Assembly: GCF_054482525.1 (NCBI RefSeq)
Contig: NZ_CM137006.1
Direction: 5' to 3' (one strand)
Length of the DNA: 64,000 bases
The position numbers and the translations under genes were made by a program. Below are positions 4,729 to 51,142 of the stretch, in pieces (position 1 is the stretch's first letter; each line of letters starts with the position of its first letter). The notes under the pieces are model-generated. The model was not told where the DNA came from, did no database searches, and saw only the letters and a program-made list of their open reading frames with translations.

Positions 4729-5349
4729 GTGGAAATTTACGAGAACGAAAACGACCAGGTAGAAGCGGTTAAACGCTTTTTTGCTGAAAATGGCAAAGCA
4801 CTGGCTGTTGGGGTGATTTTGGGCGTTGGTGCACTGATTGGCTGGCGCTACTGGAACAGCCATCAGGTTGATTCTGCACGCTCCGCTTCTCTTGCCTATC
4901 AAAATGCGGTTACCGCAGTGAGCGAAGGCAAACCGGATAGCATTCCGGCGGCGGAAAAATTTGCTGCTGAAAATAAAAATACTTATGGTGCGCTGGCTTC
5001 TTTGGAACTTGCGCAGCAATTTGTTGACAAAAATGAACTAGAGAAAGCTGCCGCCCAGTTACAACAGGGGCTGGCAGACACGAGCGATGAAAATCTCAAA
5101 GCCGTGATAAATCTGCGTCTTGCTCGCGTTCAGGTTCAGCTCAAGCAGGCTGATGCCGCGCTGAAAACCCTTGATGCCATCAAAGGTGAAGGGTGGGCTG
5201 CCATTGTTGCCGACCTGCGTGGTGAAGCATTGCTGAGCAAAGGTGATAAGCAAGGTGCGCGTAGTGCATGGGAAGCAGGCGTGAAAAGCGATGTTACCCC
5301 GGCACTGAGCGAAATGATGCAGATGAAAATTAATAATTTGTCCATCTGA
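4729..5349 (+). CDS. yfgM: TPR-like membrane protein YfgM
   Basis: 206 aa ORF with GTG start; recalled YfgM N-terminus; conserved position. Confidence 0.85.
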   Translation: MEIYENENDQVEAVKRFFAENGKALAVGVILGVGALIGWRYWNSHQVDSARSASLAYQNAVTAVSEGKPDSIPAAEKFAAENKNTYGALASLELAQQFVDKNELEKAAAQLQQGLADTSDENLKAVINLRLARVQVQLKQADAALKTLDAIKGEGWAAIVADLRGEALLSKGDKQGARSAWEAGVKSDVTPALSEMMQMKINNLSI

Positions 5350-5359
5350 GAGGGACCCG

Positions 5360-6538
5360 ATGCAATTGCGTAAATTACTGCTGCCAGGACTGCTTTCCGT
5401 TACCCTTTTAAGCGGCTGTTCGCTGTTTAACAGCGAAGAAGATGTGGTAAAGATGTCCCCATTGCCGACCGTTGAAAACCAGTTTACGCCGACCACGGCG
5501 TGGAGCACTTCCGTTGGTAGCGGCATTGGCAACTTCTATTCCAATCTTCATCCGGCACTGGCGGACAACGTTGTCTATGCAGCGGACCGCGCTGGTTTAG
5601 TAAAAGCGCTGAATGCGGATGATGGCAAAGAAATCTGGTCTGTCAGCCTGGCCGAGAAAGATGGCTGGTTCTCTAAAGAGCCTGCATTACTTTCTGGCGG
5701 TGTGACCGTGTCTGGTGGGCATGTCTACATTGGCAGCGAAAAGGCGCAGGTTTACGCGCTGAATACCAGCGATGGTACTGTGGCATGGCAAACTAAAGTC
5801 GCGGGTGAAGCACTTTCGCGTCCGGTGGTCAGCGACGGTCTGGTGTTAATCCACACCAGTAACGGTCAGTTACAAGCGCTGAACGAAGCTGACGGCGCTG
5901 TCAAATGGACAGTTAACCTCGATATGCCTTCGCTCTCTTTGCGTGGCGAGTCTGCGCCGGCAACGGCTTTTGGTGCGGCCGTCGTGGGTGGCGATAATGG
6001 TCGCGTCAGCGCAGTGCTGATGGAACAGGGCCAGATGATTTGGCAGCAGCGTATTTCCCAGGCGACCGGTTCTACCGAAATTGACCGTCTGAGCGATGTT
6101 GACACGACTCCCGTCGTTGTTAACGGTGTTGTTTTCGCGCTGGCCTATAATGGTAACCTGACGGCGCTTGATCTGCGCAGTGGTCAGATTATGTGGAAAC
6201 GCGAACTGGGTTCGGTGAATGATTTCATCGTCGACGGCAATCGCATCTATCTGGTCGATCAAAATGACCGGGTGATGGCGTTGACCATTGATGGCGGCGT
6301 TACGCTGTGGACACAAAGCGATCTGTTGCATCGCCTGCTGACTTCTCCGGTGCTGTATAATGGCAACCTGGTGGTAGGTGACAGCGAAGGTTATCTGCAC
6401 TGGATTAACGTCGAAGATGGTCGTTTCGTTGCCCAGCAAAAAGTTGATAGTTCCGGTTTCCAGACTGAACCGGTTGCCGCTGATGGCAAACTGCTGATCC
6501 AGGCAAAAGACGGAACCGTGTACTCTATTACACGTTAA
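5360..6538 (+). CDS. bamB: Outer membrane assembly lipoprotein BamB
   Basis: 392 aa ORF; lipobox LLSGC; PQQ-like beta-propeller repeats. Confidence 0.9.
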   Translation: MQLRKLLLPGLLSVTLLSGCSLFNSEEDVVKMSPLPTVENQFTPTTAWSTSVGSGIGNFYSNLHPALADNVVYAADRAGLVKALNADDGKEIWSVSLAEKDGWFSKEPALLSGGVTVSGGHVYIGSEKAQVYALNTSDGTVAWQTKVAGEALSRPVVSDGLVLIHTSNGQLQALNEADGAVKWTVNLDMPSLSLRGESAPATAFGAAVVGGDNGRVSAVLMEQGQMIWQQRISQATGSTEIDRLSDVDTTPVVVNGVVFALAYNGNLTALDLRSGQIMWKRELGSVNDFIVDGNRIYLVDQNDRVMALTIDGGVTLWTQSDLLHRLLTSPVLYNGNLVVGDSEGYLHWINVEDGRFVAQQKVDSSGFQTEPVAADGKLLIQAKDGTVYSITR

Positions 6539-25215: not shown

Positions 25216-25565
25216 TGGACTATTCACAGTTAAGTGATTTTGAAATTAACAGAATGGTAGGAGACATAATTTTTAAAGGCCTTTGGGCGTGTAAACCGGA
25301 AACATCAGGGAATAACACCAACAAATGGTATTACGGAAATACTGATACAACTTTTGAGCCATTAAACCCTTTACCTGACTACTGCAATAATCCATCGGAT
25401 GCATGGCCTATTATTGTTGATAATAAAATCAGTCTAACCTGCCACCAATCTCGCGGTGAGTGGTCAGCTGTTTTTAATGTCGAGAACATTTGCTTTCATG
25501 CGAATAATCCACTCCGAGCCGCCATGATTGTATTTCTCATGATGCAGGAAAATCAGAATGGCTAA
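25212..25565 (+). CDS. Hypothetical phage protein (NinX/DUF2591-like?)
   Basis: 117 aa ORF; weak recall only. Confidence 0.35.
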   Translation: MMDYSQLSDFEINRMVGDIIFKGLWACKPETSGNNTNKWYYGNTDTTFEPLNPLPDYCNNPSDAWPIIVDNKISLTCHQSRGEWSAVFNVENICFHANNPLRAAMIVFLMMQENQNG

Positions 25566-25896
25566 ATCAGCAGCAGAGCGCAAAGCCGCTCAGAGAGCCA
25601 GACAAGCTGCATCTGGTGTGCGTAAGCTGGAGATTGTGCTTGATGCTCAGGAAATTGAAATGCTTGAGCGTAACTGTGCCGCACGTCGCCCCGGGCGTGC
25701 GCCTTACGAATTTGGTGAGTATATAGCGTTACTGATCCGCCAGGATGATGCACGCGTGCGCGGGCGTATAAAATCGATCAGTAGAAAACGTTGCGGTAAG
25801 TGCGGCGAGAGAGTTCCCGTTAATTCATGCCCGTGTAATGGTGACTCGCAATGCTGGGTGACTAAAGGCTGGTATGAAACGAAATTAATAGTGTGA
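25558..25896 (+). CDS. Hypothetical protein with C-terminal zinc-ribbon; candidate late-gene regulator
   Basis: 112 aa; CGKCG...CPCNGDSQC; last gene before late operon. Confidence 0.3.
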   Translation: MAKSAAERKAAQRARQAASGVRKLEIVLDAQEIEMLERNCAARRPGRAPYEFGEYIALLIRQDDARVRGRIKSISRKRCGKCGERVPVNSCPCNGDSQCWVTKGWYETKLIV

Positions 25897-25982
25897 CATG
25901 TCACGAGTAGATTATGCATGATGAATTTGACGGGTTTTGAATACTGCCGCCAACTATGGCGGCTTTATTTTGCATGGTACTA

Positions 25983-28083: not shown

Positions 28084-28173
28084 TCCGCTGGTGGGGATAA
28101 TGTCGTTGATATCCTCTGGTGAGGATAAAACAAAGCCAGCTCATAGGCTGGCTGTTTGTGACATGTCACAGAG

Positions 28174-40998: not shown

Positions 40999-42797
40999 GT
41001 TACTTTGGCCTTAATCCAGTAAACCAGAATCAGCAGCTTGACGAAGCAGCATCAAATCCAGCTGGCTTTAACAGCGATGTTGGTTTTTTCGACAATGCTG
41101 TAGGAGCGGCATTGTCTGGTTTGTACTCCGGGCTGGTGGCAAAGCCAGATCAGTTGCTATGGGCAGGGATGGATAAAATCGTATCCCCGATTGCTCAGTT
41201 TGTTAACGAAAACACCTCGCTCAATGATACTTCAGTTTCATACATTGCCGAGCAGAGAAAACTAGCAGAGCAGCAGGTTAAGCGGCTGACGCCTGATGCC
41301 GCGACAACCGGAACCGCTGGGCAGGTTCTTTATGGGTTGTTCGATATGGGCGGGCAGGCTGTTGTCGGTACAACGCTCGGTGGTCCTGTCGGAGGTGCAG
41401 CGGCGGTAACTTCGCTACAGGGTTTTTCTGAGTTTGAACGGCTGACAGCACAGGGTGTTGATTTCAGGACGGCGCAGGAAGCGGGATTAGTGCAGGGCAT
41501 TACTGCTGGTGCCGGAACGCTGATCCCTATGAGCCTCGGGTTACGTGCTGGTGGTGCGCTGGCGGAAGGTGTGGCGGCTCAGCTTGCGCGGACGGGTGAG
41601 AGTTCAGTGCGACGCGCCGCAGCAACAGCAGTACGTGCAACGCCAGATATTGCCTATGCCGCAGGTACAAATATTGCGTTCGGTATGGCACAGCGTGGGC
41701 TTACTGCAAAAACACTTCGTGATGGTGGCTATAGCGAAATGGCTAACCAGTATGATGTGTTGGATCGACAGGCAATTGCTATTGATGCTGTTCTTGGGGT
41801 GGCGTTTGGTGGTGTCGGCAGATTTATTAACTCTCGCGGCGAGTCTACAAACGCACCAAATTTTTCACCAGTTGATATCGATGCTGCACTGGCGGCGAAT
41901 GCCGCTCATCATGCTGAAATTGATATTGCGCCCGGCGTGCCGATCAACGTGCTTTCGCGCAATTCTCACATTCAGGCTCTGCGAAAAGCTATGTCTGATG
42001 TTAGCCAGGGGAGACCTGTAGACGTTGCCAGCATTGTTGAGTCTGCATCTTTCAGTGAAATTCCTGGGCGCAAGAGTCTGCTGTCTCAGGCAGTTAATGA
42101 GGCTCTGTCATCTGTAGATGATGGAGTAACGGCGCGCGCTATAGAAAATCGGTTGCTTGAAGAACAGGCCGCGCAGCTTTTGCCGCGTGGAGATAGACAG
42201 GTTTACCAGTCTGAAATCGCTAATAGCCAACGAATTATTGAAAATCTCACTGAACAGCGTGCACAAATTCTTGCAGAAGAGCCAACCGGTAGCGGTAAAG
42301 CTTTGTCTCGTGCTCGATCAGATAAACAGGCCAGACTTCGCGATATTGATCAACGAATCCGGCAGGCACAAGAACGCCTGGAATTTTCCCGTAACGCGTT
42401 GGCACCGCACGAGCCTGGCGGTCAGTTTTTTGAAGCTCGAGCAGAACTGGCTCGGAGACAGCAGGCAGAAAGTGAACTTAATGCTCAGGCTGTTTCATTC
42501 TATAAAACAGCAGAGGTCAGGACGCCAGACGAAGTAGCTCCTTTTGAGCCTGATAAAATATTGCAACAGGCAGAACAAAAAATGATGTCAGATCAGGCAG
42601 GAGATATTGATCTGCGCATAGCTGAAGACTCGCTGCTTGAATCACCTGACATGATAATCACCGTGCTGGATGATGATGGTAATCCACAATCGCGCAGTGC
42701 GCGTGAAGTACTGGATGAAGCGAACAGGGAAAGTGAGCAGGCAATACAGGATTCCAGCCTGTTTGATGTTGCTGTGGCGTGTTTCTTGAGAGGTTAA
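40995..42797 (+). CDS. Internal virion / ejection protein
   Basis: 600 aa; Ala-rich N-terminal half, coiled-coil-like C-terminal half. Confidence 0.5.
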   Translation: MSYFGLNPVNQNQQLDEAASNPAGFNSDVGFFDNAVGAALSGLYSGLVAKPDQLLWAGMDKIVSPIAQFVNENTSLNDTSVSYIAEQRKLAEQQVKRLTPDAATTGTAGQVLYGLFDMGGQAVVGTTLGGPVGGAAAVTSLQGFSEFERLTAQGVDFRTAQEAGLVQGITAGAGTLIPMSLGLRAGGALAEGVAAQLARTGESSVRRAAATAVRATPDIAYAAGTNIAFGMAQRGLTAKTLRDGGYSEMANQYDVLDRQAIAIDAVLGVAFGGVGRFINSRGESTNAPNFSPVDIDAALAANAAHHAEIDIAPGVPINVLSRNSHIQALRKAMSDVSQGRPVDVASIVESASFSEIPGRKSLLSQAVNEALSSVDDGVTARAIENRLLEEQAAQLLPRGDRQVYQSEIANSQRIIENLTEQRAQILAEEPTGSGKALSRARSDKQARLRDIDQRIRQAQERLEFSRNALAPHEPGGQFFEARAELARRQQAESELNAQAVSFYKTAEVRTPDEVAPFEPDKILQQAEQKMMSDQAGDIDLRIAEDSLLESPDMIITVLDDDGNPQSRSAREVLDEANRESEQAIQDSSLFDVAVACFLRG

Positions 42798-42802
42798 ATT
42801 AA

Positions 42803-45277
42803 ATGAGACAGGAATGTATACAAGCGGTCCAGCAGGCGGCGCAGCGCACGTTAACGGCGCGAGAAATACAGAACATTGAAGACCGCATTTATCGAAATAT
42901 GCGCTCCATTGCTCGTGATGACCCGATGTCGTGGCGACAACTTTCCGAATCAGAACGGTTGTATCGTGCAGCACAATTGGCATCTGAAGAATTACAGCGA
43001 GAAGCGGCATTAAAGAAACGTCGTGTGGCCCTCACTATAGCCGCACGTCAGAGATTGGATAAATTTATCAATAGCTATCAAGGGGCTGATGGGAAACTTG
43101 GCGCTCTTAACCGTACTATTGCTTTTAATGCAGACGGTAAATCGAATTTCCTCTCTGTTGAATCCAGAACAAAAGCCACCCGTGATTATGCATTGAGTCA
43201 ATTGCAGGAGGCATTCGAAGCAGTTGATCCTCGCTTTTTTGGTCTGTTTGAAGATGAAGCGGGCGTACGTGACCTGATATATGAAATGCGGGGGCAAAAT
43301 ACTGGCAATGCTAAAGCAAGAAAAGGTGCTAAGGCGTGGAGAGAAGTTACAGAGCTGCTGCGCCGCCGGTTTAATGATGCTGGTGGGGACATTGGCTATC
43401 TCGAAAACTGGGGGATCCCTCAACATCATTCTATGGAAAAGGTTGGGGCGGTATCAAAAGATAAATGGGTTAGCGATGTTATAGGTAAGCTGGATCGCAA
43501 ATATTATACCCGAGCCGATGGACAACTGATGAACGATGCCGAGTTGTCTGCATTTCTTGGAGAGGCTTATAACACGATCGCTACTGGTGGGCTGAATAAG
43601 CTTACTGATACCGGAATGCGAATTTCCGGCGCACGTGCTAACCGTGGTAATGCATCACGACAGATACATTTCAAAGATGCAGATTCCTATCTGCAATATC
43701 AGCAACTTTATGGCGATCGCTCTCTATGGGAAATCATGGTCGGTCACCTGGAAGGTATCAGTAAAGATATTGCACTGGTGGAAACATATGGTCCAAACCC
43801 CGATCATGTTTTCCGCTCTCTTCTTGATCAGGTGAAGGCAGAAACGGCAACAGCTAACCCGAGTAAAACCGGTAAAGTCGAGCGGCTGGCGAACAACACA
43901 GAGAATCTGTACAACTTTATTTCCGGAAAGACACAGCCTGTAGCGAATCCGCACATCGCGCGATGGTCTGACAATATCCGCAACTGGCTGGTTGCCAGCA
44001 GACTCGGATCCGCGTTGCTGTCATCGTTCTCTGATCTTGGAACCATGTATCTGTCTGCGAAGGTTACCAACCTTCCAATGAACCAGTTATTCCGCAACCA
44101 GCTTGAAGCTATGGACCCAACGAACCGTACAGAACTTGCGCGGGCGCGCCGCGCTGGTCTGGCGATGGAATCTCTACTTGGCAGCGTTAACCGCTGGGCG
44201 ATGGATAATATGGGGCCGTCTGTGTCTCGTTGGGCTGCAACGGCGGTAATGCGTGCCAGTGGGCTTACAGCATGGTCAGATGCGCACAAGCGCGCCTATG
44301 GCGTAACCATGATGGGAAGCCTGGGAGAAGTAGTGTCACGGACACCAGACCTTCGTCGCCTCGATGACTCTGATTTTCGTATCCTGAAAAGCAAAGGGAT
44401 TACTGACACAGACTGGAGCGTATGGAAGTTGGCGCAACAGGAGGACTGGGGGAACGGTAATAATACGATGCTGACACCGGAAAGCATTATGCGTATCCCT
44501 GATTCAGCAGTTAAACATCTTGGTGAGCCTGAACGCGTGAAATTTGAGGCAATGCGTAAACTGCTCGGTGCCGTAACTGAAGAAGTTGATATGGCTGTTA
44601 TTACACCGGGAGCACGTGAGCAACTGATAACCGGTTCTGGTATTCAGCGTGGAACATGGAAAGGTGAATTAACGAGAAGTGTTTTCCTGTTTAAATCGTT
44701 CCCTATCTCGGTTGTTATGCGTCACTGGTCACGCGCTATGGGTATGCCGTCTGCTGGTGGGCGTGCGGCATATATTGCGACGTTTATTGCCAGTACGACC
44801 ATTCTTGGCGCTTTGTCGCAACAACTTAACGACCTTGCGTCTGGTCGTAATCCTCGAGAGATGACAGGAGAAGATGCTGCTAAATTTTGGCTTGGTGCTC
44901 TACTGAAAGGTGGTGGTCTTGGCCTTTACGGTGACTTTTTATTGTCAGATCACACTAGGTACGGGAGCGGCGCGCTGGCGTCGATGCTTGGCCCGGTAGC
45001 TGGTCTGGTTGATGACGTAGTGAAGATAGCTCAGGGCATACCGCTAAATGCTGTGGAAGGGAAGAGTGAGCAGACTGGTGGTGATCTGGTGAAGCTGGGG
45101 AAAGGTTTGATGCCAGGTGCGAATCTCTGGTACTTGAAGGCGGCTCTCGATCACATGATCTTTAATCAGATGCAGGAGTATTTTTCACCAGGCTATTTGC
45201 GTAAAATGGAGCAACGTTCGAAGAAAGAGTTTAACCAGACATACTGGTGGCGACCTCAGGATGTCACTCCGCAATAA
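42803..45277 (+). CDS. Internal virion / ejection protein
   Basis: 824 aa ORF. Confidence 0.5.
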   Translation: MRQECIQAVQQAAQRTLTAREIQNIEDRIYRNMRSIARDDPMSWRQLSESERLYRAAQLASEELQREAALKKRRVALTIAARQRLDKFINSYQGADGKLGALNRTIAFNADGKSNFLSVESRTKATRDYALSQLQEAFEAVDPRFFGLFEDEAGVRDLIYEMRGQNTGNAKARKGAKAWREVTELLRRRFNDAGGDIGYLENWGIPQHHSMEKVGAVSKDKWVSDVIGKLDRKYYTRADGQLMNDAELSAFLGEAYNTIATGGLNKLTDTGMRISGARANRGNASRQIHFKDADSYLQYQQLYGDRSLWEIMVGHLEGISKDIALVETYGPNPDHVFRSLLDQVKAETATANPSKTGKVERLANNTENLYNFISGKTQPVANPHIARWSDNIRNWLVASRLGSALLSSFSDLGTMYLSAKVTNLPMNQLFRNQLEAMDPTNRTELARARRAGLAMESLLGSVNRWAMDNMGPSVSRWAATAVMRASGLTAWSDAHKRAYGVTMMGSLGEVVSRTPDLRRLDDSDFRILKSKGITDTDWSVWKLAQQEDWGNGNNTMLTPESIMRIPDSAVKHLGEPERVKFEAMRKLLGAVTEEVDMAVITPGAREQLITGSGIQRGTWKGELTRSVFLFKSFPISVVMRHWSRAMGMPSAGGRAAYIATFIASTTILGALSQQLNDLASGRNPREMTGEDAAKFWLGALLKGGGLGLYGDFLLSDHTRYGSGALASMLGPVAGLVDDVVKIAQGIPLNAVEGKSEQTGGDLVKLGKGLMPGANLWYLKAALDHMIFNQMQEYFSPGYLRKMEQRSKKEFNQTYWWRPQDVTPQ

Positions 45278-45286
45278 GGAAGTGTT

Positions 45287-45460
45287 GTGTTTTTAATTAT
45301 TTTGAGTGTGATAATTTCTGGTGGATTGTTATTTATTGACCGCTACAAATATTTTCTTAACCCTCAGACTCAAGCTATTTGCTGGTTCATCTTTGTTGTG
45401 CAGGGAGTAGTTCTTGTTGCAAGCCTTATTGAGGGGAGGCCTCTTATTTTTACTGGGTAA
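45287..45460 (+). CDS. Small membrane protein (2 predicted TM)
   Basis: 57 aa hand-translated ORF, GTG start 6 nt after AAGGA RBS. Confidence 0.35.
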   Translation: MFLIILSVIISGGLLFIDRYKYFLNPQTQAICWFIFVVQGVVLVASLIEGRPLIFTG

Positions 45461-45472
45461 ATAGGTGACTAC

Positions 45473-45769
45473 ATGCAAGCTATAGGATTCATTGTTTATA
45501 TCGTCGTTGGTCTTTTTCAGTTGGCAGCAATTATGGCTGGGCTTGAATCATGGTGGGGATTGCACTGGATAATTGCAGCCCCCATTGCTTTCATCGTGAG
45601 CTATATTCCATTTGTTGGAGCGATTGTTGGTATGGTTGGCGCTGTGGATGTATGGCGGTGGGAGTGGTGGCAGGCTGGCCTTCTCTTCTTTGGTGGGATC
45701 ATCTTTGCTATTGTCTGCGGTGGAATGTCATCATTTTTCGAATGGCTATCATTCAGAAAAGGGACGTGA
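45473..45769 (+). CDS. Small membrane protein (about 3 TM)
   Basis: 98 aa hydrophobic ORF. Confidence 0.5.
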   Translation: MQAIGFIVYIVVGLFQLAAIMAGLESWWGLHWIIAAPIAFIVSYIPFVGAIVGMVGAVDVWRWEWWQAGLLFFGGIIFAIVCGGMSSFFEWLSFRKGT

Positions 45770-46032
45770 CATGTCACAGGCCGCTTTCGCGGCCTTGTTT
45801 TTAACGAATGCCACCGCCGCCCGGACGGGAATCCGCAGAACGCCCACCGCAGCGGGAGCCGTCAGCGGCAGTATCGCTGTCGTGCTGACAACGACCGGCA
45901 AAGGCCTGAGTTGAAGCTACCAGAGACAACAAAACGAACAGTGCAGCAAATGCTTTTTTCATTGTGAAATTTCCATCTATAAGCCACCTCAATGTGGCGT
46001 CAATGAGTGTAGCACTGACTTTTGTTTCGTCC

Positions 46033-46055
46033 ACAAAAAATCCCGCAGCGCGGGC
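46033..46055 (-). terminator. Rho-independent terminator of the minus-strand cargo operon
   Basis: Minus strand reads GCCCGC-GCT-GCGGG-A-TTTTTT directly after toxin stop codon. Confidence 0.7.
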
Positions 46056-46601
46056 TTATTCCTTCCATTTATCAGAAAAAAGATCTTCTTCTAAAGGCAT
46101 TGGTTCTGTTTTTGTTTTCTCAAAGAATTGATAACTGATAGTGATTGCTGCCTCTTTAAACTCTTCTTGCTCAGTTATGTTGTGGGCATCTGCGTCAACA
46201 AAAAACATAACCAGCGCATCACGATTGTGATTTACCGAATAAACTAAAAAGCAATTACTTGTTGGTATGCATTTTACTTGCACAGACGCTATTTTTTTCC
46301 ATGCATCCCAAGATGATTTTTTACCAGTGTGTTTTTTATCACTATCTTCTGGAATATAGTCTTGGTTATCGACATGAGTATGCCTGACATTTAGTTTAAG
46401 CATTTCTGTCGGACGAGCAAATGCAGCATCTTTACCAAGAGATGGATGGTATCCCGTTTTCCAATACTGGGTAAAGGCATCAGATACTTTCTTCAGCTCA
46501 AGATCAGATGCACAAAGGGCCGAGAAATTTTGCGTATGCAATACTCGACCCTTATATCTGACAATTTGATTTTTATCATTCTGCGACGCAGACGAACTCA
46601 T
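46056..46601 (-). CDS. YafO-like toxin candidate with N-terminal extension
   Basis: 181 aa from ATG with AAGGA RBS; C-terminal part resembles recalled YafO core. Confidence 0.4.
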   Translation of the reverse strand: MSSSASQNDKNQIVRYKGRVLHTQNFSALCASDLELKKVSDAFTQYWKTGYHPSLGKDAAFARPTEMLKLNVRHTHVDNQDYIPEDSDKKHTGKKSSWDAWKKIASVQVKCIPTSNCFLVYSVNHNRDALVMFFVDADAHNITEQEEFKEAAITISYQFFEKTKTEPMPLEEDLFSDKWKE

Positions 46602-46755
46602 AATTTTCCTTATTGTTACGAGAATCAAAGAAAGCGCGGGATACGCGACTTGCGTGATCTTTTGTCATAGTAACTTTTACGCACTCTACGCTTCCATTGA
46701 AAGAACGTCTTGCGGCAGCTTGCGCTCTACGCATCTGCAATTTTTCGTTTCGCAT
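46576..46755 (-). CDS. Small basic protein, candidate antitoxin/regulator
   Basis: 59 aa hand-translated ORF (below ORF-track cutoff) with GAGGT RBS; 3' end overlaps toxin start by 26 nt. Confidence 0.3.
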   Translation of the reverse strand: MRNEKLQMRRAQAAARRSFNGSVECVKVTMTKDHASRVSRAFFDSRNNKENYEFVCVAE

Positions 46756-46815
46756 GACATTACCTCATATCTCATAAGTTCATTACACGGATTAATAAAA
46801 ATGAAACCAATCCGT

Positions 46816-46830
46816 TTACCCTTGAGGTAA
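46816..46830. promoter_or_regulatory. TTACC-N5-GGTAA motif upstream of small ORF/toxin pair
   Basis: TTACCcttgaGGTAA. Confidence 0.45.
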
Positions 46831-46902
46831 TAGTACGCTATTCACCCACAGTCTGCAATCTGTACAGAATTATTTAAAGGCACATCCCTGTGCCGCCGCC
46901 CG

Positions 46903-47598
46903 TCAGAAGAACCCTGCCTTGTCGTTGATGTACTCCGCGTGCGTCTGGATATCACGCAGGCATTTGCTCACACCGACGATGTAGCAGAACATGGTGGTCA
47001 GCTCCGCCGCCGCGCCCGATACGTCGTGCCCGTCGTCCTGTAACTGGTTCAGCAGATTCATCAGCAGTGAGTTCTCCGTCAGGCCGAGAACACCAGACGG
47101 CGAATGAATCAGGCTGCGGTAGCCGGGCTTCAGTGGGGCACTGTAGGTTTTGTTCTCTATCTTCATCGCCTGCATCACTGCTGATGCTGTGGCGTTGGCT
47201 ACCTGGTCGGCAACCATCTTTATGCGCTCTTCCTGCGGGAGCGAGTTTTTAATGTAACTTCCGGTGCGGCGGATCTGAGGAAGAACCTCACCTGTAACCC
47301 ATTTACGAAAGCGGTATGGGATAGTGCCTGGTGTCACTGCGTCGCGGCAGCGGAGGATCAGTGTGTAGAGGCCTGACTCGGAGATGATGATCGATTCTTG
47401 CTCACCGCCAGGGGTGTCGGTTGAAGCGACGCCCTTCTCATCATCATCAAGTTTTCGAACAGCATCTCGATGGTTTGCTATGCCTATAGCCCGACAAACA
47501 TCTGAAGCGATAAACCATGGCTCACCATTAATGACGATTACTCGTATATCGGCTTGGGATTCGAAAGAAAAAATGGACGTGCTTTTTGTAGCTGTCAT
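46903..47598 (-). CDS. BRO-N domain antirepressor-like protein
   Basis: 231 aa; N-terminal Bro-N-like pattern (INGEPWFIASDVCRAIG); C-terminal domain paralogous to ORF 47914-48171. Confidence 0.6.
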   Translation of the reverse strand: MTATKSTSIFSFESQADIRVIVINGEPWFIASDVCRAIGIANHRDAVRKLDDDEKGVASTDTPGGEQESIIISESGLYTLILRCRDAVTPGTIPYRFRKWVTGEVLPQIRRTGSYIKNSLPQEERIKMVADQVANATASAVMQAMKIENKTYSAPLKPGYRSLIHSPSGVLGLTENSLLMNLLNQLQDDGHDVSGAAAELTTMFCYIVGVSKCLRDIQTHAEYINDKAGFF

Positions 47599-47867
47599 AG
47601 TGGTTACCTTTTAGTCTGGTTAATCACCACTACCGACGCCAATCGGTTGGTGGTGAGCTGTGCAGGGTTGGCGTAACCGGCTAAAAGGACCCGGCGCACC
47701 TTTCGGTGCCCCCACACAGCCCACCATAATACGAATGTGGCCGTGCTATACGCATAAAAAAACCGCTTGCGCGGTGAATGCGCCTTTTAGTAATCCGGGA
47801 CGCCAATCCCGGCACTGGATTTTGCCAGTGCCCGATTACTATGGCACAAGAGGAGTGCGATGTAAAT

Positions 47868-47882
47868 TTACCGCAAAGGTAA
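47868..47882. promoter_or_regulatory. TTACC-N5-GGTAA motif upstream of BRO-N gene
   Basis: TTACCgcaaaGGTAA. Confidence 0.45.
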
Positions 47883-47913
47883 ATATAAGCACTTCATTTG
47901 GTAATTGCAAACC

Positions 47914-48171
47914 TTATCTGGTTTGTTTTCGTAATTGTTCGGCACAATAGTCGAGATGTGTTTGCAGATCCTGCATAGACATCTGTGAGCTGGTGACGTA
48001 GTTAATCAGTGCAGTCAGTTCGGCAAGTGGGCCATCGACATTAAATCCATCCTTATCTAGATCCCGGAGTAATTTCATCAAGTGCGATCCCTCCACCAGT
48101 GACTTGACGCCTCCCGGCGTGTGAATCCTTTCGGTAAATCCGTCTTCCAGTGGATAGTGATACTGCTGCAT
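47914..48171 (-). CDS. Small LexA-controlled protein, Tum-like antirepressor candidate
   Basis: 85 aa from ATG with GGAG RBS; ~45% identity by eye to C-terminal 60 aa of adjacent BRO-N protein; LexA box upstream. Confidence 0.5.
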   Translation of the reverse strand: MQQYHYPLEDGFTERIHTPGGVKSLVEGSHLMKLLRDLDKDGFNVDGPLAELTALINYVTSSQMSMQDLQTHLDYCAEQLRKQTR

Positions 48172-48191
48172 CTTAATCTTCTCCATGCAAT

Positions 48192-48211
48192 AACTGTATA
48201 TTTATACAGTA
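48192..48211. promoter_or_regulatory. LexA (SOS) box AACTGTATATTTATACAGTA
   Basis: CTGT-N8-ACAG with AT-rich spacer, near-consensus; upstream of minus-strand gene 47914-48171. Confidence 0.75.
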
Positions 48212-48248
48212 TCAAATAATTTGTTTGCTATCCAGCACGTTTTGCAAA

Positions 48249-48263
48249 TTACCTAAAAGGTAA
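48249..48263. promoter_or_regulatory. TTACC-N5-GGTAA motif in divergent region between cargo operon and tailspike
   Basis: TTACCtaaaaGGTAA. Confidence 0.45.
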
Positions 48264-48367
48264 TATCTATTTATATTCACAGTATTTCTATCCATATGTG
48301 GTTTTTCAGGTAATAGAATAACCAGATATGCGGCGCAACGGGTGCTGCGACTATCTGGAGATTTAAC

Positions 48368-51142
48368 ATGACGGTCTCAACCGAAGTTGACCACAACGAA
48401 TACACAGGTAACGGCGTTACGACATCATTTCCGTATACCTTCCGCATTTTCAAAAAAACAGACCTGGTTGTTCAGGTGTCTGACCTGAACGGTAACGTAA
48501 CAGAATTGGTTCTGGATACCGGTTATACGGTAACTGGGGCGGGCACTTATAGTGGCGGTTCTGTTGTTCTTCCGTCGCCGCTTGCTGCTGGCTGGAAAAT
48601 CACGATAGAGCGTGTGCTTGATGTGGTGCAGGAGACTGATCTTCGCAATCAGGGAAAATTTTTCCCCGAAGTTCATGAGGATGCATTTGACTACCTGACG
48701 ATGCTGATCCAGCGATGTTTTGGGTGGTTCAGACGTGCATTGATGAAACCATCTTTGCTTGCAAAATATTACGATGCAAAGCAAAACAGAATTTCTAACC
48801 TTGCAGATCCATCACTTGAGCAGGATGCTGTAAATAATCGCTCAATGCGTAATTATGTCGATGCTGCAATCGCCGGGGTTGTTGGTGGTTTTGGTTGGTT
48901 TATTCAGTATGGTTTTGGGGCAGTATATCGAACGTTCCAGGATAAGATGCGGGATATCGTCAATGTTCGCGATTTTGGTGCAAAAGGGGATGGCATTACT
49001 GACGATACAGACGCAATAACAAATGCCATCATTTACTGCGCATCTAACGGAAAACGCCTGAAGTGGGATTCTGGTGTGTATTTGATTAGCCGCATAAAAT
49101 GCGGCGGGGATAATTATAACTATGACTGGGTAGCTGATGGCAAGGTTGTCTTAAAGTCAACCGCAAAAGAGCCTCTTGGTCCAAACTGGATTGATGATTA
49201 TTTCATAAGACTCGAAGGTGGAGATGCCACGCCAATTGACTATAATTCAACAATAAATCCTGGTGACACATCAATATCAATTAACTCAGCATATTCTGTT
49301 GATGCAGGCGATATAATTATGATTCATGGTAATCGCTTAATTCAGACAGATAATAGAGGACAGGCTTGTGAAGGTGAAATGCATGTTGTTACTGCTTTTG
49401 ATAATGCAACAAAAAAAGCGGAGATATCAGGTGCATTTTATTTTTTCTACTCTGCGAGCAATGATTACTCAACGACCGTAACAGCATCTGTATCCGGAGG
49501 TGAATTCTCATTTGGTAATGATGCAACATTAACAAAACAATACAATCAGGTAAAAGTAACAGGTGTCACCGGAGCTAACGCCGGAATATCAAGATACATA
49601 ACTCATTGGGATTACGACACTAAAACAGCAAAATTTGAATATGCTCAGGGACCATTCCCGTTTAAACCATCTGTTGGAGACGTGTTTAAAATCACAAGAA
49701 AGGCAAATATATATAAAAGAAAACCATGCTACGGCAGAATTGTCGGTGATTTCAATTTTGAAAGACCTGTCACGCAGAACGCATCTCCTGGTGATTTGGG
49801 GTTCCGTGGTCTTGTGATAGATGGCGCTGTTGATATGCATATAGAAGGAATAAAACTAATCGGCTTTTCAGAAACTGGAATTTTTCTTGAGTCATGCTAC
49901 AGAACGAAAATAATAGAGCCATATATTGAATACTCAAACCGTGCATATGATTTAACAAACGGCACTGGTTATGGTGTTGAAATATACAATAGCAGCTATT
50001 GCACAGTCGTGGATATGATAGCATTTGCTTGCAGGAGGGGGCTTGATGTAAGCGGGACTCAAATGGTATCACTGTATAATAACATTATAAATCCAACGAT
50101 GATGGGTGGTGGAACTGCATATGATGGAGTTAAATTTTTCCCTGATGGCGATACAAGAAATTCATGTTGCGGTGGACACGGCCCATCATACGAAACAACT
50201 TTTACAGGCGGCAATTCAGTCAATTTGTATTATGCTGGTGTAATACGCGGATTAAATGAAGTGTATGATGGAATGAACGCCAGGGGATTTAGCGGACCGG
50301 CTCCTTTTTTTGTAAGATATAGTGGTGGTGGGTTCACGATTCAGAACTGTAATTATATTGATGGTTTTACTGAGATGTCTTTGCCATACAACTTGAGGTA
50401 CAAACCTGTGAATGCAACTCAACGTAATCACAGACCTTTTGTTTTTATTGAAACAACTCTGGCACAGACAGACAGAAACTCTTACTATAAAGAACTTCCT
50501 GTTGTTATTAAGAATAATACCGCAAGGACTGTTCTCAAGGGCTTTTTACGTTTTGAGGTTAATGATGGCCTCACCCCTCTAATCCAAAATATTTATTTTG
50601 GTGGTAATTTATGCATGGCGAACCCAGAAACATCAGACTCTGTATCAGGGCAAACAGAGGCAGTAATGGTTTATTCATCAGTTCCTGGTGCAATAATTGT
50701 TCGAAATTTCCATGATCTTGGCGGTAACAGAATTGTTCCTGTTGGAGCAGGATACAGATACTGCGGTATGTTCAACACGCCAGATGGAATAGCAGGAACA
50801 ATAGTTCAACCAGACGGAAAATATCTAATAACACTTGAAGCCAACAAATCTACAAGTATCCTTGTTGGTGGATATGTCCCATGTGTTCGCCTTGATATGC
50901 ACGACATACTTGATATTCATGGGGTAATTGCAGTTGGTGTTCTTATTCATCGTGGTGAGGCAATTGATTTTTCTCCTTTAAAAGAAATTAATAAGCAAAA
51001 TGTTGTATTGAAAACCGGAGTTCTTTCAGATAATGATGGTGATGAAAATAACTTAAATATTTCGTTTGACTTTGCAACCATATATTTAAGCAACAAGATG
51101 CCAAATAAGATTCAACTATCTATTGAAGTATCAGGAGTGTAA
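48368..51142 (+). CDS. Tailspike / receptor-binding protein
   Basis: 924 aa; N-terminal virion-attachment-like region, large repetitive beta-rich body; position typical. Confidence 0.6.
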   Translation: MTVSTEVDHNEYTGNGVTTSFPYTFRIFKKTDLVVQVSDLNGNVTELVLDTGYTVTGAGTYSGGSVVLPSPLAAGWKITIERVLDVVQETDLRNQGKFFPEVHEDAFDYLTMLIQRCFGWFRRALMKPSLLAKYYDAKQNRISNLADPSLEQDAVNNRSMRNYVDAAIAGVVGGFGWFIQYGFGAVYRTFQDKMRDIVNVRDFGAKGDGITDDTDAITNAIIYCASNGKRLKWDSGVYLISRIKCGGDNYNYDWVADGKVVLKSTAKEPLGPNWIDDYFIRLEGGDATPIDYNSTINPGDTSISINSAYSVDAGDIIMIHGNRLIQTDNRGQACEGEMHVVTAFDNATKKAEISGAFYFFYSASNDYSTTVTASVSGGEFSFGNDATLTKQYNQVKVTGVTGANAGISRYITHWDYDTKTAKFEYAQGPFPFKPSVGDVFKITRKANIYKRKPCYGRIVGDFNFERPVTQNASPGDLGFRGLVIDGAVDMHIEGIKLIGFSETGIFLESCYRTKIIEPYIEYSNRAYDLTNGTGYGVEIYNSSYCTVVDMIAFACRRGLDVSGTQMVSLYNNIINPTMMGGGTAYDGVKFFPDGDTRNSCCGGHGPSYETTFTGGNSVNLYYAGVIRGLNEVYDGMNARGFSGPAPFFVRYSGGGFTIQNCNYIDGFTEMSLPYNLRYKPVNATQRNHRPFVFIETTLAQTDRNSYYKELPVVIKNNTARTVLKGFLRFEVNDGLTPLIQNIYFGGNLCMANPETSDSVSGQTEAVMVYSSVPGAIIVRNFHDLGGNRIVPVGAGYRYCGMFNTPDGIAGTIVQPDGKYLITLEANKSTSILVGGYVPCVRLDMHDILDIHGVIAVGVLIHRGEAIDFSPLKEINKQNVVLKTGVLSDNDGDENNLNISFDFATIYLSNKMPNKIQLSIEVSGV

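Follow-up and report, generated by a model that had tools for sequence, protein, structure and literature searches.

A probable module junction with three small envelope-protein genes in an Escherichia coli Uetakevirus prophage, and a widespread two-cysteine motif in a putative moron

Introduction

Morons were first described in the phages HK97 and HK022, and the best studied of them encodes HK97 gp15, a YebO-family protein of the inner membrane for which exclusion has been demonstrated; the same account gives the definition of a moron and precedents for moron-encoded small envelope proteins (PMC3594210). In P22, the gene for the small inner-membrane protein SieA, which has three predicted transmembrane (TM) domains, lies after the last ejection-protein gene and before the tailspike gene, in a stretch that also holds the antirepressor module (PMC10461980). 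HxsA, the effector of the HXS system, is a periplasmic protein that interferes with phage entry (PMC13128918). Here we describe four small open reading frames (ORFs A to D) and their surroundings at positions 45287 to 46032 of a stretch of 64,000 nucleotides (nt) from contig NZ_CM137006.1 (NCBI RefSeq assembly GCF_054482525.1); the whole stretch is referred to below as the window. DNA searches show that it holds an Escherichia coli prophage of the genus Uetakevirus, similar to epsilon15 and phiV10, with the phages HEMP4 and phiv142-3 as its nearest relatives (98–99% identity). At least part of the region is matched in 559 of 5426 complete E. coli genomes.

The layout resembles the P22 stretch gene 16 - sieA - immI - gene 9. 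A first-pass annotation, made from the letters of the window, had described small membrane and secreted proteins in a podovirus-like prophage, lying after the last ejection protein. This description is borne out: the genes are found between the ejection genes and the tailspike gene, and the equivalent region of P22 holds sieA and immI. As in P22, the small genes follow the last ejection-protein gene and precede the tailspike gene, with an antirepressor module in the stretch, and ORF B shares with SieA the three predicted TM domains. However, SieA has 162–164 amino acids (aa), is encoded on the opposite strand with its own promoter and is expressed in the lysogen, whereas ORF B has 98 aa and apparently belongs to a late operon.

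ORF C is closer to the morons. It is an add-on unit between conserved phage genes, with its own terminator, a promoter region and a differing guanine plus cytosine (GC) content; only some relatives carry the gene, and it encodes a small envelope protein. It differs from HK97 gp15 in that the product is predicted to be a cleaved periplasmic peptide of an unrelated family, and that its promoters are candidates only. Precedents for the role thought most likely for ORF C, which is periplasmic entry exclusion, are T4 Sp (spackle), a small signal-peptide-bearing periplasmic protein that blocks phage genome entry, and HxsA. The latter is matured by two radical S-adenosylmethionine enzymes and has a peptidoglycan-binding domain and HxS repeats; ORF C has none of these and stands alone.

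On balance we favour, with some reserve, the view that the region is a module junction holding three independent genes for small envelope proteins, together with one artefact. ORFs A to C are ordinary in kind, being prophage accessory genes already listed as hypothetical proteins in public databases. The interest lies in a widespread motif that has no description in the curated libraries, and whose minimal form is found in ORF C, and in a conserved palindrome at the junction.

Results

There are 77 ORFs of at least 30 aa overlapping positions 42000–49000, and since open frames are so common in this 7-kilobase (kb) span, each frame was tested with divergent homologues. The coding test consisted of the proportions of synonymous and non-synonymous differences (pS and pN) and the variation by codon position. 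Hydrophobic segments were located with Kyte-Doolittle profiles and structures were predicted with AlphaFold2. All four ORFs were found at the coordinates given in the first-pass annotation (Table 1), which had named conservation in related prophages as a check on them: the frames of ORFs A, B and C are conserved, and that of ORF D is not. Searches of Pfam, NCBIfam, PADLOC and PDB sequences and of the full-text literature returned nothing informative for ORFs A to C, in agreement with the earlier statement that the secreted peptide is uncharacterised.

For ORF C, the test drew on phages of Klebsiella, Cronobacter, Pectobacterium and Dickeya, together with an E. coli prophage of a second type. 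The synonymous sites are essentially saturated (pS 0.50–0.87), with pN at 0.10–0.20, and third codon positions vary at 54 of 55 codons, against 14 of 55 for second positions. Replacements are mostly in the leader and at the extreme C-terminus, and there are none between the second Cys and PGG. The protein has full-length matches to phrog_14503 and phrog_3117 (E 2.3e-40 and 4.1e-36). On this pattern of selection ORF C is judged to be a real gene, and because the mature core has remained unchanged while synonymous sites were saturated, it must do something that selection sees. The frame is contained within a longer one of 77 aa that opens at a GTG (46034); this N-terminal extension was rejected, since in Klebsiella the part of the frame before MKK is broken by insertions and deletions.

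The precursor begins with MKK, followed by a hydrophobic stretch of 23 residues, and has AFA at residues 20–22. Read by eye, it thus shows the basic n-region, the h-region and the small-x-small pattern of a Sec signal peptide with a signal peptidase I site, as the first-pass annotation had also seen. Cleavage is predicted after AFA, which would give a mature peptide of about 31 aa, GRCQHDSDTAADGSRCGGRSADSRPGGGGIR; A22 (AFA|G) and A20 are equally likely as the last residue removed. Its two cysteines are predicted to form a disulfide, producing a periplasmic loop peptide. When the family is aligned on A-x-A|G-[NRP]-C, the leader is seen to vary freely, while between E. coli and Dickeya no change is seen in the mature core. 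A lipoprotein was considered and rejected: the sequence FAGRC has an extra residue between G and C, the family has AG[NRP]C, and there is no lipobox of the form L-[AS]-[GA]-C.

The mature core can be written as C-x12-C-G-x-R-[SA]-A-x2-R-P-G-G, a motif of 25 residues with fixed spacing. A profile search of 1.84 billion representative proteins found it in at least 405 representative clusters at E <= 0.001. The arrangements were counted by occurrence among the best 150 matches. In 27 occurrences, as in ORF C, a short protein has the motif directly behind its N-terminal leader; in 43 it also lies just after the leader, with a long extension behind it; in 49 it is at the extreme C-terminus of a longer protein, often following a TM segment in the examples read; and in 30 it is internal. 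Some proteins bear the motif twice, and the largest have 314 aa. A bacterial SH3 domain (SH3_3) is also present in 2 of the 22 larger motif-bearing proteins that were scanned. Three PHROG families contain the motif, but it was not found in Pfam, NCBIfam or PDB, and no mention of it was found in literature searches. A likeness to the Excalibur-like or Ivy-like loops, considered for the DxD...DG and CQHD segment, was rejected, there being no support from Pfam and His occupying motif position 3 in 40 of the 150 cores.

ORF C lies between two terminators, that of the preceding gene upstream and its own hairpin downstream, which together delimit a cassette of about 300 bp. The left boundary is the terminator of the YafO-like gene; in other contexts, with at least 10 different genes upstream, a hairpin of this type also stands before the cassette. 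At the other end, a GC-rich hairpin follows the stop codon in every context examined, with differing sequences, so that ORF C has the terminator of its own expected of a moron. In a comparison of 80 viral contigs carrying a 100%-identical ORF C, the similarity to the window ends in most contigs 74–95 nt upstream of the ATG and 22–34 nt past the stop. In 21 contigs ORF C faces ORF B, in 17 it faces an antirepressor gene and in the rest other genes, and at least 10 different neighbours are found on each side. More distant copies occur after tail genes, in prophages of Pectobacterium and Dickeya, and after a RelB/YafQ pair, in another E. coli prophage. The YafO-like gene of the window is one of the at least 10 alternatives upstream of ORF C, and this position is therefore an accessory-cargo hot spot.

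The base composition and the presence or absence among relatives are also those of a moron. GC content is 0.63 over ORF C and 0.37–0.44 in its flanks. The gene is present in 445 of the 5426 complete E. coli genomes (about 8%), and relatives occur in Klebsiella, Cronobacter, Salmonella, Pectobacterium and Dickeya. It is found in 48 of 80 viral contigs that carry a relative of ORF B, with remnants of its 3' end where it is missing: Uetakeviruses without ORF C still have about 50 nt from the end of its coding sequence (TTAACGAATGCCACCGCC...GGGAATCCGCAGA), with the next terminator directly adjoining. Since it is the 3' end that remains, the cassette was ancestral in these phages and has been lost by deletion. 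Taken together, the boundaries, composition and distribution agree with the published account of morons (PMC3594210), with the promoter as a candidate, and ORF C is a self-contained GC-rich cassette that has been recombined into many phage contexts. The ORFs were earlier presented as a single cluster; as a functional unit this does not hold, given that the neighbours of ORF C vary and that ORF B is present in 215 of the 5426 genomes as against 445 for ORF C.

ORF C is probably transcribed from a candidate promoter of its own in the lysogen, and two candidates can be read upstream of it. The first-pass annotation proposed TTGACG-N16-TATAGA as a plausible promoter. The sequence is indeed present (46003-45976, minus strand), but its -10 hexamer is missing the conserved T at the end, and the element is not kept in Klebsiella. 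The alternative, TGGACG-N16-TACACT (46033-46006, minus strand), lies 30 nt further upstream and has the counterpart TGGATG-N17-TACAAT in Klebsiella. Neither candidate passes a consensus scan.

ORF D runs antisense to ORF C, and the two had been described as a mutually antisense pair. The homologous stretches contain 6–11 stop codons in the frame of ORF D in Klebsiella BUCT711 and Kp4865-1, Pectobacterium, Dickeya and locus L014, and 3 in Klebsiella phi13.3; the frame is open in the Cronobacter copies. In phage TL-2011b the ATG does not lie in the same frame. In the window this codon forms the middle of the palindrome described below, and codons 2–10 are the terminator hairpin. ORF D was rejected as a gene on these three grounds (stops in homologues, a start within a palindrome, and a frame running through a terminator), and what remains of the pair is one gene and its shadow. 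The description of ORF D as hydrophobic also needs to be toned down, the hydropathy profile being weakly hydrophobic. A match to phrog_25977 shows merely that other annotators called the same frame, and the present result removes a false antisense gene that already holds a PHROG family of its own.

The junction itself is marked by a perfect 12-bp palindrome, GTGACATGTCAC, directly followed by the terminator that closes the late operon and also, on the minus strand, ORF C. The folding energy of this hairpin is -16.5 to -17.9 kcal/mol (z-score -3.0 to -4.5). The palindrome occurs in the window in three exact copies, against 0.18 expected by chance, and each ends a plus-strand gene block. Besides the copy at the junction, one (25893-25904) overlaps the TGA of a gene for a 112-aa regulator (25558-25896) before the terminase genes, and one (28158-28169) is just past the terminator of the large terminase gene, beside an inverted insert. 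The palindrome is at the equivalent position in 86 of 104 loci, and also in epsilon15 after gp18; phiV10 has two exact copies. It is kept at junctions in the Uetakeviruses of E. coli, Klebsiella, Cronobacter and Salmonella, and in TL-2011b it has arrived together with the ORF C cassette. Its role may be that of an operator, of a site for read-through control or of a recombination junction. The palindrome may help to explain cassette exchange or the handling of late transcription at these terminators.

ORF A starts 9 nt past the stop of the 824-aa gene, and its Shine-Dalgarno sequence, AAGGAAG, overlaps that stop codon and is conserved. E. coli copies start with GTG, those of Klebsiella and Cronobacter with TTG. 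There are hydrophobic segments at residues 1–19 and 28–50 with a basic loop between them. Against the Klebsiella and Cronobacter copies, pS is 0.43–0.46 and pN 0.12–0.17, a signal that is weaker but frame-specific. Homologues of 57–58 aa are annotated in Escherichia, Citrobacter, Klebsiella, Salmonella and Enterobacter, and ORF A is found in 65 of the 80 viral contigs carrying an ORF B relative; it has no match in PHROG. It is broken by an in-frame amber codon in one Cronobacter prophage (L011). ORF A is a real but dispensable gene for a small membrane protein, and the earlier description of it (57 aa, GTG start with a ribosome-binding site, two TM segments) stands. This confirms a GTG/TTG-initiated gene of 57 codons that the Prokaryotic Genome Annotation Pipeline (PGAP) had left unannotated in the one RefSeq locus examined.

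ORF B starts 12 nt past ORF A, behind AGGTGA. Its hydropathy profile has three hydrophobic segments, and the AlphaFold2 model (predicted local distance difference test score, pLDDT, of 90) agrees with the three TM helices seen in the first-pass annotation, placing helices at residues 2–28, 32–42, 46–59 and 65–97 with a kink at a conserved Y-I-P within the region 32–59. The loops ESWWGLHW and DVWRWEWWQ are Trp-rich and conserved, and the C-terminus is basic. An alignment of 26 homologues has 17 invariant columns, with conservation highest in the Trp-rich loops and where the third helix begins. The coding signal is strong (pS 0.54–0.66, pN 0.02–0.04), and the contrast is lost in shifted frames; ORF B, like ORF A, is thus under purifying selection. 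ORF B is intact in 77 of the 80 viral contigs with an ORF B relative. In prophages of Yersinia, Salmonella and Cronobacter its relatives directly follow, on the same strand, the last large internal protein (833 to 1130 aa). A Foldseek search of AFDB50 with the model returned only uncharacterised membrane proteins of about 95–100 aa from diverse Proteobacteria, and a search of BFVD gave only noise.

A consensus scan found no promoter-like site on the plus strand at 43800-45500, which covers the 1.5 kb upstream of ORFs A and B, and the first strong terminator sits after ORF B. Together with the tight spacing, this leads us to read ORFs A and B as distal genes of the late operon, and they appear to be the last genes of the operon for internal virion proteins. 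A weak terminator-like hairpin within the 3' end of ORF A (Table 1) might reduce transcription into ORF B.

The place after the last internal virion protein is not always filled by the same gene. Unrelated small hydrophobic proteins of 64, 46 and 66 aa are encoded there, all just before the palindrome, and from these sequences the slot can be described as a variable place for small membrane proteins. The first two are epsilon15 gp18 and phiV10 p21, which occupy the same slot as ORF B, with palindrome and terminator within a few bases. Both have two hydrophobic segments, which are annotated TM helices in p21 and are read from the sequence in gp18. As in ORF B, the TGA stop of gp18 is inside the palindrome. 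The families nevertheless differ, being phrog_29212 and phrog_7892 for gp18 and p21 and phrog_3075 for ORF B, while ORF A has none.

It is worth adding two observations on the annotation of ORF B. In E. coli N1131 (L001, about 6277) its codon 2 is TAA, and PGAP calls a version of 78 aa. In phiv142-3, a frameshift led annotators to an ORF B of 118 aa.

Discussion

We propose that ORF C would be made by the lysogen, exported through the Sec pathway, cleaved and oxidised, to give a small periplasmic loop peptide. Most likely this peptide would bind a conserved component of the envelope, and not the O-antigen, and so act in lysogenic conversion or in blocking entry. Genera that differ in their surface polysaccharides share an identical core, and in many proteins the motif lies in a part facing the periplasm; for this reason a conserved envelope target is to be expected. 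The cell could thereby be protected from phage entry, or its envelope could be altered in some other way. During lytic growth, late read-through transcription towards the tailspike gene would run antisense to ORF C. ORFs A and B are most likely inner-membrane proteins that would be made late, alongside the ejection proteins, and act on linked membrane events, for example by blocking secondary injection into an infected cell. The possibility raised in the first-pass annotation, of superinfection exclusion or surface modification, would fit ORF C better than ORF A or B.

A more specific idea is that the motif is an undescribed periplasmic binding module, of which the phage form is the minimal one, a stand-alone exclusion factor spreading as a cassette of about 300 bp. 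We consider this speculative and rather improbable as a whole. On such a reading, the motif would bind a conserved component of the envelope or of the ejection apparatus, and would block entry of the incoming genome. If ORF C does block entry or change the envelope, it would be among the smallest known factors of lysogenic conversion, and a motif shared by hundreds of unannotated proteins would gain a function. With 31 residues and one probable disulfide, the peptide lends itself to synthesis and testing.

Several observations weigh against these proposals. No conserved partner gene pointing to a target was seen among the examined neighbourhoods of ORF C, and three neighbourhoods of distant motif members contain genes of mobile elements or prophages with no recurring partner. 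The AlphaFold2 model of the ORF C core as a loop has a pLDDT of 72, and is too small for a fold search. The Shine-Dalgarno sequence of ORF C is weak in E. coli; the alternative promoter matches 8 of 12 consensus positions, and the first candidate has the defect in its -10 hexamer noted above. The gene is often deleted and is hence not essential, and nor are ORFs A and B, in view of nonsense mutations in single strains. The function put forward for ORFs A and B is read from their position and predicted topology. PADLOC gave no match to a defence system for ORFs A to D or for the neighbouring genes.

For ORFs A and B, the obvious alternative is that they are prophage-expressed inner-membrane exclusion proteins which block DNA injection by related phages, in the manner of P22 SieA. 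This applies to ORFs A and B the superinfection exclusion suggested in the first-pass annotation. They adjoin the ejection-protein genes, where P22 has sieA, and the unrelated small TM proteins in the same slot in epsilon15 (gp18) and phiV10 (p21) suggest diversification. ORF B itself, however, is highly conserved and not diversifying. Both genes are on the strand of the late operon and tightly coupled to those before them, with no promoter-like site found upstream, whereas sieA of P22 is on the opposite strand with its own promoter; and an alignment of ORF B against SieA has an hhalign probability of 0.3%, that is, no similarity. We regard this explanation as unlikely: position and strand do not support SieA-like action in the lysogen, whose exclusion system ORFs A and B would not be. 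The layout of ORF B (98 aa, three TM helices, a basic C-terminus and a late position) also resembles that of class I holins such as lambda S105, and there is a weak Pfam match to Phage_holin_5_2 (E 0.027), which would make it a holin-like or lysis-timing protein. That match is below significance, and Foldseek found no holin above noise. Moreover, related Uetakevirus loci have a complete lysis cassette after the tailspike gene, with two holin-family genes and an endolysin (and also a spanin in phiV10 and epsilon15), and ORF B was never beside an endolysin or lysis gene in the loci examined. We think a holin role distinctly unlikely, and keep to a late protein of the inner membrane.

For ORF C, a precursor of about 50 aa of the Sec type, carried by temperate phages, could equally recall an exported signalling peptide or a bacteriocin, in place of an envelope-binding factor. 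The arbitrium peptide AimP has a similar form, and in the Pectobacterium locus there is a colicin M-like gene within 6 kb. However, unrelated phages and genera share one and the same mature core, contrary to what a private signalling code would require, no gene for a receptor, for immunity or for processing stands alongside, and the motif is also built into membrane-anchored proteins; this makes signalling or killing very improbable. Scarcely credible is a type I toxin-antitoxin-like pair with the antisense frame, or a small membrane toxin under antisense control. ORF C is small, has a hydrophobic N-terminus and is overlapped by an antisense frame, and toxin-antitoxin genes are found nearby (YafO-like in the window, RelB/YafQ in L014 and HicA in L018). 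Yet the hydrophobic segment is the least conserved part and resembles a cleavable leader, whereas it is the polar core with its two cysteines that does not vary; homologues have stops in the antisense frame; the motif is a periplasm-facing module in proteins of up to 314 aa; and Rfam matched no antisense RNA family at ORFs C and D, nor anything else within 45287-45962. An envelope-directed peptide is therefore the reading that we retain for ORF C. Overall, what the first-pass annotation observed is partly confirmed, and its interpretation partly supported.

Other features of the region

Table 1 Coordinates of the features discussed. Positions are those of the window, except where a comparison locus (L) is given.
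Feature	Position	Strand	Evidence and remarks
Internal virion protein, 824 aa	42803..45277	+	phrog_684 'virion structural protein', full-length match; annotated homologues in phiV10 and phiv142-3
ORF A, 57 aa, GTG start	45287..45460	+	small membrane-protein gene
Weak terminator-like hairpin, TGAGGGGAGGCCTCTTA + TTTTTAC	45430-45446	+	inside the 3' end of ORF A, before ORF B
ORF B, 98 aa	45473..45769	+	phrog_3075, E 1.6e-54, full-length profile match
Perfect 12-bp palindrome, GTGACATGTCAC	45766..45777		includes TGA of ORF B and ATG of ORF D; conserved module junction
ORF D, 47 aa	45771..45914	+	antisense to ORF C; not a gene
Intrinsic terminator, AGGCCGC-TTTC-GCGGCCT then TGTTTTTA	45778..45803	+	terminator scan
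ORF C, 53-aa precursor, WP_000708858.1	45801..45962	-	phrog_14503, phrog_3117; selection test
ORF C promoter/leader region, 75 nt	45963..46037	-	two candidate promoters; hairpin GCCAC-ATTGAG-GTGGC (45998-45983)
Terminator of YafO-like gene, CCCGCGCTGCGGG then ATTTTTT	46035..46054	-	terminator scan; left boundary of ORF C cassette
YafO-like ORF, 190 aa	46056-46628	-	PGAP name YafO-family type II toxin; phrog_1651
Bro-N/Ant antirepressor gene	46903-47598	-	
C4 antisense RNA	47646-47731	-	Rfam, 79 bits; upstream of Bro-N/Ant gene
IsrK RNA	47756-47831	-	Rfam, 78 bits; upstream of Bro-N/Ant gene
Homologue of epsilon15 gp19, 90 aa	47914-48186	-	phrog_450; related to C-terminal part of Ant
Near-consensus LexA box, TACTGTATAAATATACAGTT	48192-48211	-	just upstream of the 90-aa gp19 homologue
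ORF C remnants	L031, L042, L050, L051, L056, L057, L067, about 5330-5380; phiV10 (L003), 5240-5293		
Slot protein, epsilon15 gp18	L105, 7327-7521		
Slot protein, phiV10 p21	L003, 5088-5228		
Slot protein, third	L013, 6199-6399		

The 824-aa protein is homologous to phiV10 p20 and epsilon15 gp17, and is the third and last of three large internal virion proteins, the first of which bears a lytic-transglycosylase-like region. Its role in ejection is probable from its position among the internal virion proteins. After ORF C, the gene order is the YafO-like gene and the Bro-N/Ant antirepressor gene (both on the minus strand), the gp19 homologue, and the tailspike gene (plus strand).

No antitoxin gene was seen adjoining the 190-aa YafO-like ORF. 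Comparable accessory positions are held by HicA/DUF1902 next to ORF B in L018 and by RelB/YafQ upstream of ORF C in L014.

The C4 and IsrK RNAs and the Bro-N/Ant gene occupy the place of the mnt-arc-ant immI region in P22, in an arrangement which we take to resemble antirepressor control of the c4-ant type in P1 and P7. The LexA box at the gp19 homologue has a similar counterpart in epsilon15, and the box suggests a small antirepressor under SOS control that would act as an induction switch.

Elsewhere in the window, a terminator-like hairpin (GCCGCCAACTATGGCGGC, then TTTATTTTG) lies downstream of the listed TTG start (25937) of the 224-aa small terminase ORF. The ATG near 25975 may be the true start of the small terminase.

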